From assembly GCF_056712565.1 (NCBI RefSeq), contig NZ_CM160072.1: DNA of 64,000 nucleotides; one strand, 5' to 3'. This document shows positions 4,064-37,801 of this stretch, piece by piece. Below the pieces are notes generated by a model that did no database searches, was not told the DNA's origin, and saw nothing but the letters and a program-made list of their open reading frames with translations. The stretch's first letter is position 1; each line of letters opens with the position of its first letter. The position numbers and the translations under genes were made by a program.

Positions 4064-5014
4064 ATGCAGATCCTGTTGGCCAACCCGCGTGGTTTTTGTG
4101 CCGGGGTAGACCGCGCTATCAGCATTGTTGAAAACGCGCTGGCCATTTACGGCGCACCGATATATGTCCGTCACGAAGTGGTGCATAACCGCTACGTGGT
4201 CGATAGCCTGCGCGAGCGTGGGGCTATCTTTATTGAGCAGATTAGCGAAGTACCGGACGGCGCGATCCTGATTTTCTCCGCACACGGTGTTTCTCAGGCA
4301 GTACGTAACGAAGCGAAAAGCCGCGATTTGACGGTGTTTGATGCCACCTGTCCGCTGGTGACCAAAGTGCATATGGAAGTCGCCCGCGCCAGCCGTCGTG
4401 GTGAAGAATCTATTCTCATCGGTCACGCCGGGCACCCGGAAGTGGAAGGGACGATGGGCCAGTACAGCAACCCGGAAGGGGGAATGTATCTGGTCGAATC
4501 GCCAGACGATGTGTGGAAACTGACGGTCAAAAACGAAGAGAAGCTCTCCTTTATGACCCAAACCACGCTGTCGGTGGATGACACGTCTGATGTGATCGAC
4601 GCGCTGCGTAAACGCTTCCCGAAAATTGTCGGTCCGCGCAAAGATGACATCTGCTACGCCACGACTAACCGTCAGGAAGCGGTACGCGCCCTGGCAGAGC
4701 AGGCGGAAGTAGTACTGGTGGTTGGTTCGAAAAACTCCTCCAACTCCAACCGTCTGGCGGAACTGGCCCAGCGTATGGGCAAGCGCGCGTTTTTGATTGA
4801 CGATGCGACAGATATCCAGGAAGAGTGGGTGAAAGAGGCGAAATGCGTCGGCGTGACTGCTGGCGCATCAGCTCCGGATATTCTGGTACAGAACGTAGTC
4901 GCACGTTTACAGCAGCTTGGCGGTGGCGAAGCCATTCCGCTGGAAGGTCGTGAAGAAAACATTGTTTTCGAAGTGCCGAAAGAGCTGCGTGTCGATATTC
5001 GTGAAGTCGATTAA
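4064..5014 (+). CDS. ispH: 4-hydroxy-3-methylbut-2-enyl diphosphate reductase
   Basis: 316 aa from the ATG at 4064 ([19 protein letters not shown]...), with the conserved Cys of the 4Fe-4S LytB fold; the longer track ORF from 3980 is an in-frame upstream extension overlapping fkpB. Confidence 0.95.
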
Positions 5015-5079: not shown

Positions 5080-5994
5080 ATGCGTTTACCTATCTTCCTC
5101 GATACAGACCCCGGCATTGACGATGCCGTTGCCATTGCCGCCGCGATTTTTGCCCCCGAACTCGATCTGCAACTGATGACCACTGTCGCGGGTAATGTTT
5201 CGGTAGAGAAAACCACCCGCAACGCCCTGCAACTGCTGCATTTCTGGAATGTGGATATTCCGCTTGCCCAGGGCGCTGCCGTACCACTGGTTCGTGCGCC
5301 GCGCGATGCGGCATCTGTACACGGTGAATCGGGAATGGCTGGCTATGACTTTGTTGAACACAACCGTCAGCCACTGGGTATACCGGCGTTTCTGGCAATT
5401 CGTGATGCCCTGATGCGTGCGCCAGAGCCCGTTACCCTGGTGGCCATCGGCCCGTTAACCAATATTGCGCTGTTACTTTCACAATGCCCGGAATGTAAGC
5501 CGTATATTCGCCGTCTGGTGATCATGGGCGGTTCTGCTGGTCGCGGCAACTGCACACCAAACGCCGAGTTTAATATCGCTGCCGATCCAGAAGCGGCAGC
5601 CTGTGTCTTCCGTAGCGGCATCGAAATCGTCATGTGCGGTCTGGATGTCACCAATCAGGCAATATTAACCCCTGACTATCTCGCTACTTTGCCGGAATTG
5701 AATCGCACCGGAAAAATGCTACACGCCCTGTTTAGCCACTACCGTAGCGGCAGTATGCAAAGTGGACTACGTATGCACGATCTTTGCGCTATCGCCTGGC
5801 TGGTGCGCCCGGAATTGTTCACTCTCAAACCGTGTTTTGTCGCGGTAGAAACTCAGGGTGAATTTACCTCAGGCACGACGGTTGTTGATATCGACGGTTG
5901 CCTGGGCAAACCAGCCAATGTACAGGTGGCGCTGGATCTGGATGTGAAAGGCTTCCAGCAATGGGTGGCTGAGGTGCTGGCCCTGGCGCTCTAA
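5080..5994 (+). CDS. rihC: non-specific ribonucleoside hydrolase
   Basis: 304-aa ORF with the N-terminal DTDPGIDD nucleoside hydrolase signature; synteny. Confidence 0.93.
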
Positions 5995-6016
5995 TAATAA
6001 AACAAGGAAGTGTTCT

Positions 6017-6382
6017 ATGACGTATGGAGAAGCGTATCTGGAAGGGTGGAAAAACATCTTTAATTATGAAGGTGTTTCCAATCGCTTCGAGTTCTGGTCG
6101 TTTATGATTGGTAGTGGCGTTATCTGTCTGCTTCCGCTTTTATGTTGGTGGTTAGCGGTAACAATTAACAATGACTATGGTGTTTTCATTTTTTTTGCGC
6201 TGCCCGCGTCATTTATTTTAACGTTGATTTTTGCCATACCGGCGATAGCGTTAGCCGTCAGAAGGATGCACGATATCGGATATTCAGGGTGGTGGGTTAC
6301 CATTGTCGTGTTGATCCCTGTTACGGGCGTAATTCTGCTTATACTGTGCTGCCTGCCGTCAAAGTCACAAGACCAGGCATAA
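6017..6382 (+). CDS. small inner-membrane protein, DUF805 (YhaH/YhaI-like) family; not present at this locus in K-12 as I recall it
   Basis: 121-aa ORF with RBS aaggaag 6 nt upstream; 3-4 predicted TM helices and the family motif RRMHDIGYSGWW; followed by hairpin atgacgca...tgcgtcat; the rihC-dapB spacer is about 380 bp longer than in K-12. Confidence 0.65.
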   Translation: MTYGEAYLEGWKNIFNYEGVSNRFEFWSFMIGSGVICLLPLLCWWLAVTINNDYGVFIFFALPASFILTLIFAIPAIALAVRRMHDIGYSGWWVTIVVLIPVTGVILLILCCLPSKSQDQA

Positions 6383-6527
6383 TGACAGAGGGTATGACGC
6401 ATCACTTTCTGCGTCATGCCTTTCACTGATATCCCTCCCTGTTTATCATTAATTTCTAATTATCAGCGTTTTTGGCTGGCGGCGTAGCGATGCGCTGGTT
6501 ACTCTGAAAACGGTCTATGCAAATTAA

Positions 6528-7364
<837 letters not shown>

Positions 7365-12207: not shown

Positions 12208-12261
12208 TAGCGTGTCATGGCGGATATTTTTCATCCGCTAATTTGATCGAATAACTAATAC

Positions 12262-12287
12262 GGTTCTCTGATGAGGACCGTTTTTTT
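12262..12287 (+). terminator. carB rho-independent terminator
   Basis: cggttctctgatgaggaccg stem followed by ttttttt; the IS200-like insertion begins immediately after the T-run. Confidence 0.6.
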
Positions 12288-12996
12288 GTGCACAGAAAAC
12301 CCCCAGCTAGGCTGGGGGTTCCGGAAAGCTTTCAGCTTTGAGCCAGTTATTAAAACCCCTTTTGATTTGTTAAAACACCTTGCGGTCTGGCAACTGCAAG
12401 TGTCAAACAAGAAATCAAAAGGGGGTCCCAATGGGGAACGAAAAGAGCTTAGCGCACACCCGATGGAACTGTAAATATCACATAGTATTTGCGCCAAAAT
12501 ACCGAAGACAGGTGTTCTACAGAGAGAAGCGTAGAGCAATAGGCTGTATTTTGAGAAAGCTGTGTGAGTGGAAAAGTGTACGGATTCTGGAAGCTGAATG
12601 CTGTGCAGATCATATCCATATGCTTGTGGAGATCCCGCCCAAAATGAGCGTATCAGGCTTTATGGGATATCTGAAAGGGAAAAGCAGTCTGATGCCTTAC
12701 GAGCAGTTTGGTGATTTGAAATTCAAATACAGGAACAGGGAGTTCTGGTGCAGAGGGTATTACGTCGATACGGTGGGTAAGAACACGGCGAAGATACAGG
12801 ATTACATAAAGCACCAGCTTGAAGAGGATAAAATGGGAGAGCAGTTATCGATTCCCTATCCGGGCAGCCCGTTTACGGGCCGTAAGTAACGAAGTTGGAT
12901 GCAAATGTCAGATCGTGTGCGCCTGTTAGGGCGCGGCTGGTAAGAGAGCCTTATAGGCGCATTTGAAAAACCTCCGGCTATGCCGGAGGATATTTA
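12288..12996 (+). mobile_element. IS200-like insertion sequence (IS200/IS605 family), about 709 bp; boundaries approximate
   Basis: Contains a Y1 transposase gene; perfect subterminal palindrome ccccagc-tag-gctgggg at 12301-12317 (the characteristic IS200 left-end hairpin) and a second palindrome cctccggc-tat-gccggagg at 12971-12989 near the right end; the carB-caiF spacer is about 710 bp longer than in K-12. Confidence 0.8.
12431..12889 (+). CDS. tnpA: IS200 transposase TnpA (HUH / Y1 single-strand transposase)
   Basis: 152 aa from ATG 12431: MGNEKSLAHTRWNCKYHIVFAPKYRRQVFYREKRRAIGCILRKLCEWKSVRILEAECCADHIHMLVEIPPKMSVSGFMGYLKGKSS..., containing the HxH (HIHML) motif and catalytic Tyr region of IS200 TnpA. 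Confidence 0.9.
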   Translation: MGNEKSLAHTRWNCKYHIVFAPKYRRQVFYREKRRAIGCILRKLCEWKSVRILEAECCADHIHMLVEIPPKMSVSGFMGYLKGKSSLMPYEQFGDLKFKYRNREFWCRGYYVDTVGKNTAKIQDYIKHQLEEDKMGEQLSIPYPGSPFTGRK

Positions 12997-13178
12997 TTTG
13001 CCCATTAAGTAAATCTTTTGGGGAATCGATATTTTTGATGACATAAGCAGGATTTAGCTCACACTTATCGACGGTGAAGTTGCATACTATCGATATATCC
13101 ACAATTTTAATATGGCCTTGTTTAATTGCTGCAAAACGAGTCATAGCCAGTCTTTTAATTTGTGAAACTGGAGTTCGT

Positions 13179-29300: not shown

Positions 29301-29534
29301 ATGACTGCAAAACGTACCACACAAAGTGTGACCGTCACCGTCGACCGTGAGTTAGTCAATCGCGCTCGTGATGCAGGCTTAAATATGAGCGCCACCCTTA
29401 CGGTTGCGCTCAATGCTGAACTTAAAAAACATGCAGCAACACGTTGGCGTGAAGAGAACGCAGAAGCTATCGCTGCGTTAAATCAATTGGCTGATGAAAC
29501 CGGATGTTTCTCTGATGAGTACCGGAGCTTCTAG
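29301..29534 (+). CDS. ccdA: CcdA-family antitoxin (chromosomal ccdO157-type)
   Basis: 77-aa ORF MTAKRTTQSVTVTVDRELVNRARDAGLNMSATLTVALNAELKKHAATRWREENAEAIAALNQLADETGCFSDEYRSF; ribbon-helix-helix N-terminus and W-x-EEN...GSF-DE-R-F C-terminus align with F-plasmid CcdA; GTATAC-like palindromes upstream. Confidence 0.88.
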   Translation: MTAKRTTQSVTVTVDRELVNRARDAGLNMSATLTVALNAELKKHAATRWREENAEAIAALNQLADETGCFSDEYRSF

Positions 29535-29536
29535 CG

Positions 29537-29852
29537 ATGCAATTTACGGTATACCGCAGTCGCGGCAGGAACGCCGCGTTTCCCTTTGTTATTGATGTTA
29601 CCAGCGACATTGTTGGTGAGATTAATCGCCGTATCGTTATTCCATTAACACCTATTTGAACGATTTAGCCGTATTCGCCCACCAGAACGGCTTAACCCAA
29701 TCCTTTTACCGGTAGACGGCAAAGAATATGTGCTCATGACGCATGAGACTGCAACTGTTCCAGTTAACGCGCTGGGAACGAAATTTTGCGATGCCAGCGC
29801 GCACCGAACGTTGATTAAAGGAGCATTAGATTTTATGCTCGACGGGATTTAA
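29537..29852 (+). pseudogene. ccdB: CcdB-family gyrase toxin gene, inactivated by a +1 frameshift
   Basis: ATG 29537 encodes MQFTVYRSRGRNAAFPFVIDVTSDIVGEINRRIVIPLTPI, then TGA at 29657-29659; the +1 frame from 29658 continues [64 protein letters not shown] to TAA 29850-29852. Both parts align with CcdB; the break is in the T-run of cct att tga. Confidence 0.85.
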
Positions 29853-36836: not shown

Positions 36837-37652
36837 ATGCAGTATTGGGGAAAAATCATTGGCGTGGCCGTGGCCTTAATAATGGGCGGCGGCTTTTGGG
36901 GCGTAGTATTGGGCCTGTTAATTGGCCATATGTTTGATAAAGCCCGTAGCCGTAAAATGGCGTGGTTCGCCAACCAGCGTGAGCGTCAGGCGCTGTTTTT
37001 TGCCACCACTTTTGAAGTGATGGGGCATTTAACCAAATCCAAAGGTCGCGTCACGGAGGCTGATATTCATATCGCCAGTCAGTTGATGGACCGAATGAAT
37101 CTGCATGGCGCTTCCCGTACTGCGGCGCAAAATGCATTCCGGGTGGGAAAATCAGACAATTACCCGCTGCGCGAAAAGATGCGCCAGTTTCGCAGTGTCT
37201 GCTTTGGTCGTTTTGACTTAATTCGTATGTTTCTGGAGATCCAGATTCAGGCGGCGTTTGCTGATGGTTCACTGCACCCGAATGAACGGGCGGTGCTGTA
37301 TGTCATTGCCGAAGAGTTAGGCATCTCCCGCGCCCAGTTTGACCAGTTTTTGCGCATGATGCAGGGCGGTGCACAGTTTGGTGGCGGTTATCAGCAGCAA
37401 TCTGGCGGTGGTAACTGGCAGCAAGCGCAGCGTGGCCCGACGCTGGAAGATGCCTGTAATGTGCTGGGCGTGAAGCCGACGGATGATGCGACCACCATCA
37501 AACGTGCCTACCGTAAGCTGATGAGTGAACACCATCCCGATAAGTTGGTGGCGAAAGGTTTGCCGCCAGAGATGATGGAGATGGCGAAGCAGAAAGCGCA
37601 GGAAATTCAGCAGGCCTATGAGCTGATAAAGCAGCAGAAAGGGTTTAAATAA
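36837..37652 (+). CDS. djlA: DnaJ-like membrane co-chaperone
   Basis: 271 aa from ATG 36837 ([14 protein letters not shown]...); N-terminal TM segment and C-terminal J-domain with HPD (SEHHPDK). Confidence 0.93.
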
Positions 37653-37654
37653 GT

Positions 37655-37795
37655 TTCAACGTGTAGGCCTGATAAGACGCGGTAGGCCGGATAAGACGCG
37701 CCAGCGTCGCATCCGGCGAGCAGCATCAGACAATCGGCGCAAAATTGCCGGATGCGGCGTGAACGCCTTCTCCGGCCTACCGAACTTCGCCAGCG
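37655..37795. repeat. REP / BIME cluster
   Basis: gtaggcctgataagacgcggtaggccggataagacgcgccagcgtcgcatccggc ... gccggatgcggcgtgaacgccttctccggcctacc. Confidence 0.75.
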
Positions 37796-37801
37796 TGACT
37801 A

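Follow-up and report, generated by a model that had tools for sequence, protein, structure and literature searches.

The stretch of DNA analysed here (64,000 nucleotides of contig NZ_CM160072.1 from assembly GCF_056712565.1, referred to below as the window) carries a gene between rihC and dapB that E. coli K-12 does not have at this locus. This raises the question of what the gene encodes, whether it was gained here or lost from K-12, and what its product might do. Our account, which we consider likely as a whole, is that the product is a small DUF805 protein of the inner membrane, functional yet dispensable, with a putative role as a scaffold, and that the gene is ancestral in its position after rihC and was removed by one deletion.

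The gene and the protein it encodes

The gene is an intact open reading frame of 121 amino acids with an ATG start, at positions 6017..6382 (+) of the window. Upstream of it lies rihC (ribonucleoside hydrolase; 5080..5994, +, from its open reading frame and RefSeq annotation), and downstream lies dapB (6543..7364, +, from its open reading frame and alignment). The ATG is 22 nt past the rihC stop codon (5994) and is preceded, at a distance of about 8 nt, by the Shine-Dalgarno-like sequence AAGGAAG (6004..6010, +; read from the sequence). This element is kept as AAGGA(A/G)G in the E. coli alleles, in E. albertii and in Escherichia sp. MOD1-EC7003. An earlier sequence-only reading had described a 121-residue frame with a good ribosome binding site, filling a spacer about 380 bp longer than in K-12. 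Both observations hold: the spacer (5995-6542) has 548 bp here, 382 bp more than the 166 bp of K-12, and alignment confirmed that K-12 has no such frame between rihC and dapB.

Positions 5900-6600 of the window (701 bp) match E. coli ATCC 11775 (phylogroup B2) with 100% identity, and there RefSeq annotates the open reading frame as “DUF805 domain-containing protein”, WP_000220879.1. The window gene is the same gene, with no difference. It is therefore an already annotated member of a known family, and there is nothing out of the ordinary in its presence after rihC. The assignment of 6017..6382 as a DUF805 family coding sequence rests on the open reading frame, Pfam, RefSeq, dN/dS and AlphaFold2.

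The gene is probably co-transcribed with rihC, because the gap between them is only 22 nt and our scan placed no promoter-like site in it. Its stop codon is followed by an inverted repeat that would form a hairpin with 11-nt arms (6391..6420, +; dG -23.4 kcal/mol, z = -3.9), and then by UUUCACUG. The 3′ arm, CATGCC, is common to the K-12 form, while the 5′ arm varies between alleles with compensating changes. This hairpin is probably the terminator of rihC and the DUF805 gene, and a shared transcript would end there. It has no good U tract, and a consensus terminator scan placed no site; an Rfam scan of positions 5500-7000 gave no match.

We note that the coding sequence contains a T8 homopolymer (6189..6196, +) within the codons F-I-F-F, which is kept in both E. 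coli alleles and in MOD1-EC7003. Frameshifted variants of 137 amino acids are present in public data for both E. coli and E. albertii, and those from E. coli (P0009 and P0017) start at the T8 tract. The variants at this tract may represent real inactivation or gene decay, on/off slippage, or homopolymer sequencing errors.

Membership of DUF805, proposed from the sequence alone, was borne out by a Pfam profile search: PF05656 matches with E=1.3e-19 and 71.1 bits versus a cut-off of 25.7, covering residues 15-119 of the protein and positions 2-106 of 111 in the profile. The family is large, with 8989 cluster representatives (50% identity) at E<=0.001. An alignment of 65 family members shows no variation at R82 and R83; G19, R23, W27, P75, H85, D86, S90, G91 and P101 are at least 90% conserved. 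The protein has both signature motifs of the family. The first, G-R-x-x-R-x-E-[FY]-W, precedes TM1 and is represented here by G19, R23, E25, F26 and W27. The second, R-R-[LM]-H-D-x-G-x-S-G-W-W, follows TM2 and is represented by residues R82-W93, RRMHDIGYSGWW, which is the signature that had been recognised previously.

E. coli K-12 has two proteins of the same Pfam family and of similar size, YhaH (b3103, 121 aa) and YhaI (b3104, 118 aa). They share the layout of the rihC-adjacent protein: an N-terminal basic motif, two transmembrane helices, RR[LM]HD...S.(W)W, and an ‘IP’-kinked hydrophobic segment. However, they are encoded at a different locus (3.25 Mb) and are only 27-28% identical to it, and its gene lies outside the yqjG-yhaH-yhaI-yhaJ context. 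The rihC-adjacent protein also has a longer connection between TM1 and TM2, and a short SKSQDQA tail in place of ENRFGPDPK. With this level of identity, it is by sequence a third E. coli paralog beside YhaH and YhaI, and an ortholog of neither. As a side observation, the DUF805 gene of Klebsiella has a convergent gene for a LysR-family regulator after it (L013 3501-4830, and K. pneumoniae records), and in K-12 the convergent LysR-family gene yhaJ likewise comes after yhaI (L089 3912-5215). A DUF805 gene with a convergent LysR-family gene may be a recurring pairing.

Unlike the rihC-adjacent gene, YhaH has some data attached to it. It is repressed by the sRNA SdsR in Salmonella (PMC5137417), and yhaHI are among the genes listed as CpxR-modulated (PMC2731931). 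The protein is mislocalised upon YidC depletion, and YhaH-GFP is fluorescent at the membrane, in a screen limited to proteins with cytoplasmic C-termini (PMC3225971). Mutants in yhaH resist the phages PhiWec188 and PhiWec190, and sensitivity returns on complementation (bioRxiv 10.1101/2024.11.29.626071; PMC12695924). This requirement is the only functional lead that we found within the family.

DUF805 proteins are also encoded by phages (PHROG 12855; roseophage DSS3_VP1; the Stx phages 75/02 and POCJ13). These have the same domain and are distant relatives, with a PHROG match at E=1.9e-16, a BFVD fold match at probability 1.0 and a tblastn identity of 35.5%. The last figure is for an open reading frame, unannotated in the Stx-converting Shigella phages 75/02 and POCJ13, which aligns over 91% of the length of the DUF805 protein (KF766125.2 / NC_029120.1, 16355-16666; KJ603229.1 / NC_025434.1, 16343-16654). 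Unlike the phage genes, the window gene is chromosomal, syntenic across genera, and outside any prophage.

The sequence-only reading had suggested three or four transmembrane helices. Kyte-Doolittle analysis gives three hydrophobic segments (residues 24-52, 53-85 and 89-117) and no fourth, and the third is probably a re-entrant hairpin and not a full span. AlphaFold2, run with the 65-sequence alignment, gave a model with a mean pLDDT of 92.8. In the model, a short N-terminal helix (residues 3-12) precedes two long ones (23-50 and 52-86), and the third segment is in two parts (92-99 and 101-111) with a break at residue 100. Both sequence and predicted model thus describe a small polytopic membrane protein with three hydrophobic segments.

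In many relatives, two or three DUF805 units stand in tandem in a single chain. The linkers between units consist of approximately 25 hydrophilic residues without a transmembrane segment, after which the next unit opens with GRxxRxE[FY]W. Other relatives have a cytoplasmic Ser/Thr kinase or a zinc ribbon at the N-terminus, separated from the DUF805 unit by a hydrophilic linker. Together with the break in the AlphaFold2 model and the behaviour of YhaH-GFP, these arrangements suggest a topology in which the N- and the C-terminus both face the cytoplasm and only the loop around residues 49-55 is periplasmic. Because each unit would start and end in the cytoplasm, the third segment, with its kink at the conserved Pro101, would probably form a re-entrant hairpin. 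The protein would consist of two transmembrane helices (about 23-50 and 52-86) plus this hairpin (92-111), and the two conserved motifs, G19-x3-R23-x-E25-F-W27 and R82-R83-M-H85-D86-x3-S90-G91-W92-W93, would meet at the cytoplasmic face of the membrane. On the same evidence, the DUF805 unit is proposed to self-associate. Tandem copies and fusions (with a Ser/Thr protein kinase, zinc ribbons or DUF2510 in front) were seen in P0088, P0166, P0075, P0029 and P0026, and the fusion partners may aid functional assignment of the family.

Distribution, alleles and selection

The gene is carried by 1047 of 5426 complete E. coli genomes (19%), counting as carriage at least 80% of the gene length, and every copy is chromosomal. 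By present frequency it is thus accessory, which was one of the two options offered by the sequence-only reading. All of the E. coli copies whose locus we examined lie between rihC and dapB. In 933 of the 1047 carriers the gene has at least 99% identity with the allele of the window; the phylogroup B2 strains S88, Nissle 1917 and LF82 and ST131 strains, also B2, are among them. A further 107 carriers, strain E597 and 106 other genomes, have a second allele between rihC and dapB (WP_021522992.1), with 83.6% nucleotide and 75% amino-acid identity to the first (30 of 121 residues differ). The remaining 7 are intermediate between the alleles. BR1220, the sole intermediate examined, is a clean intragenic recombinant, with codons 1-60 from allele 1 and codons 61-121 from allele 2. 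In E597 the sequence on either side of the gene shares 96.2% identity with B2 and about 98% with the references for phylogroups A, D and F; the flanks of allele 2 match none of the phylogroup references compared and are clearly not B2. These genome comparisons show that the gene has persisted in phylogroup B2 and also, as a very divergent allele, in one minority lineage outside B2.

Between distinct lineages, pairwise Nei-Gojobori dN/dS of the DUF805 gene is 0.06-0.35 and below 1 throughout, the values being noisy for a gene of 366 bp. In the same strain pairs, dN/dS of rihC and dapB is 0.01-0.10. From these ratios the DUF805 gene is under purifying selection, with a constraint 3-10 times weaker than that on rihC and dapB. 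The frame is intact in all nine of the locus sequences that were translated, including five lineages other than E. coli. Because of this, and because dN/dS is below 1 between distinct lineages, the comparisons identify the open reading frame as more than a chance one. Constraint is uneven along the gene: pN/pS is 0.22-0.34 in the N-terminal half but mostly 0.3-0.65 in the C-terminal half, reaching 0.78-0.95 when B2 is compared with the allele-2-type half. The high values imply that constraint is weak in the C-terminal half, although no window of the gene exceeds 1.

The divergence extends into rihC. Between the window (B2) and K-12, rihC has a dS of 0.42, against 0.01-0.20 for 34 other genes over about 46 kb. 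Among E. coli strains rihC is a mosaic, in which patches of 1-3% divergence alternate with patches of 11-16%. Compared in steps of 100 bp, B2 and E597 diverge by 14-21% within the DUF805 gene and by 0-2% just downstream of position 6431. The peak of divergence, at a between-species level, coincides with the indel, and could represent introgression from other Escherichia lineages or an old polymorphism. The roughly fourfold synonymous excess at rihC is a small population-genetic curiosity. A patch of approximately 12% divergence was also seen at the 3′ end of ispH (4832-4931).

One explanation of this pattern is selection by phages. The protein would be an inner-membrane factor needed by some phages, as YhaH is, and loss of the gene, divergence of its alleles and recombination at the locus would all reflect selection for escape. 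Several features are in keeping with this idea: the phage resistance of yhaH mutants, the difference of 16% in nucleotides and 25% in amino acids between alleles that are followed by almost identical DNA, the intragenic recombinant in BR1220, the polymorphism for presence and absence, and the outlying dS of rihC. In its fullest form, argued by analogy with YhaH, rihC and the DUF805 gene would be a ‘bastion of polymorphism’, where presence or absence of the gene, and two recombining alleles with between-species divergence, are kept by frequency-dependent phage selection on a putative entry factor. We consider both the general explanation and this fuller form to be unlikely. The substitutions are diffuse, are mostly conservative hydrophobic swaps, and are not centred on the one predicted periplasmic loop, and since dN/dS also stays below 1 in every window we assign phage-driven diversifying selection a low probability. 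Furthermore, identity to YhaH is only 27-28%, we know of no phage that uses the rihC-adjacent protein, and relaxed constraint plus recombination fit the same data.

It is very unlikely that the gene is a decaying relic without current function. Most E. coli have lost it, the databases contain the frameshifted variants described above, and dN/dS is 3-10 times above that of the neighbouring genes, all of which would be expected of a relic. However, the dN/dS values still lie between 0.06 and 0.35, the family motifs are fully kept in both alleles and in the outgroups, and both alleles, the recombinant in BR1220 and the outgroup copies all translate intact. The frameshifts begin at the T8 tract and may be sequencing errors. 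The favoured reading is that the gene is functional, under purifying selection of reduced strength.

Gain or loss of the gene

The second option offered by the sequence-only reading was that the gene is core but has been lost in K-12, and loss is favoured by what is found in other lineages and at the junction. An ortholog is present directly after rihC, and in the same orientation, in Escherichia sp. MOD1-EC7003 (82% amino-acid identity), E. albertii (78-79%), E. whittamii (67%), “E. coli” SCPM-O-B-8794 (66%), Klebsiella spallanzanii (51%) and Phytobacter massiliensis (about 46%, as two alignment segments). The downstream side varies: E. coli and E. albertii have dapB there, E. whittamii (judged by comparison with locus L008) has cupin-like (Pfam GPI family) genes and a mannose-type PTS, and Klebsiella has other genes.

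Alignments place the segment subject to presence and absence at 5995..6413 (419 bp), where K-12-type genomes have 37 bp instead. From position 6414 onward, the region upstream of dapB is near-identical in gene-bearing and gene-lacking strains. The five gene-lacking strains examined, namely K-12 (A), 163, SMS-3-5 and IAI39 (F), and 042 (D), have the same 44-nt junction, with a single SNP, running from the rihC stop codon to the shared CATGCC...TTTCACTGA. Because orthologs follow rihC in other lineages, and because the gene-lacking strains have one junction, the parsimonious reading is that the gene is ancestral after rihC and was removed by one ancient deletion of 382 bp (net), a deletion that about 81% of complete E. 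coli genomes now carry. Loss by a single deletion would mean that the K-12 lineage lost the gene, and not that B2 gained it. As a possible cause of the deletion we considered the microhomology TATGACG(T/C)AT at positions 6016 and 6393, and rejected it because recombination there would not yield the K-12 junction. The boundary of the deletion at 6414 would lie close to the ArgP site of dapB, which is located near -100.

The converse explanation is that B2 gained the gene by horizontal transfer, as an insertion found in that phylogroup only. In favour of this, the gene has a GC content of 44.3% versus 52.5% in the window, occurs in only 19% of genomes, and has a tree that is mosaic with respect to its flanking genes. 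However, the abundance of Phe, Ile and Leu in the protein would itself give the gene a low GC content, and the gene-lacking strains have a single junction in common. A search of phages and plasmids found no close copy: the best phage match is 35% identical, and the single 99% match to a ‘plasmid’ is to a record of 834 kb, which we do not count as a true plasmid. There is no integrase, insertion sequence or mobile-element repeat flanking the gene, where only short repeats at chance level were seen; the locus thus has none of the features of a prophage moron, IS cargo or a plasmid gene. Synteny in the outgroups already largely refutes this explanation, since the gene follows rihC in at least five lineages besides E. 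coli, as distant as Klebsiella and Phytobacter, and we regard horizontal acquisition as extremely unlikely. The reading that we retain is ancestral presence followed by a single loss.

Putative function and other differences from K-12

The earlier remark that DUF805 proteins are functionally uncharacterised still applies. The protein matches no NCBIfam model and no defence system in PADLOC, and mentions of DUF805 in the literature are incidental; nothing was found under the CFT073 locus tag c0037. A Foldseek search of the model against the PDB gave nothing below E=4, a sequence-profile search of the PDB gave only a chance match (E=0.68), and the BFVD fold search gave only another DUF805 protein.

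We propose, with low confidence, that the DUF805 unit is a membrane-embedded module for scaffolding or anchoring, and is not an enzyme or a transporter. Our preference for this role over catalysis or transport is a weak one, and the conserved cluster of His, Asp, Arg and Ser residues could equally be an active site or a ligand site. The cellular role would be non-essential and related to the envelope. The gene would be dispensable, since about 81% of E. coli genomes are without it.

A role as a partner of RihC, for example as a membrane subunit for the handling of nucleosides or ribose, is highly improbable: the two genes are adjacent and point the same way in all lineages from Klebsiella to Escherichia, only about 20-40 nt apart and with varying genes downstream, yet rihC stays intact wherever the DUF805 gene is deleted, no RihC homolog was found near DUF805 genes outside the Enterobacteriaceae, and across 80 DUF805 loci from many phyla no neighbour family is shared between genera, each being confined to one genus or family-level group.

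The B2 strains (Nissle 1917, ST131, S88 and LF82), which carry this DUF805 paralog, and K-12, which is without it, provide a natural series of knockouts and alleles in which a DUF805 paralog could be studied on isogenic backgrounds. The predicted unit, with both termini inside, probably oligomeric and with an Arg/His/Asp cluster at the cytoplasmic face, may also help work on YhaH as a phage factor.

The window differs from K-12 at several other places. The djlA-rluA spacer (37651-37801) is about 150 bp long here; its K-12 counterpart, of about 1.5 kb, contains yabP and yabQ, both of which are absent from the genome of the window. The interval between folA and apaH (29301-29852), only 77 bp in K-12, contains here an intact gene for a CcdA antitoxin of 77 amino acids (Pfam CcdA, E=1.3e-26). 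No long open reading frame follows ccdA; two fragments of 40 amino acids (29537-29659 and 29730-29852) resemble a disrupted ccdB, and are candidates for its remains. Finally, the carB-caiF spacer (12208-13178) is about 970 bp long versus 262 bp in K-12, and contains an open reading frame of 169 amino acids (12380-12889, +) that matches Pfam Y1_Tnp, the IS200-like transposase family, with E=2.7e-36.
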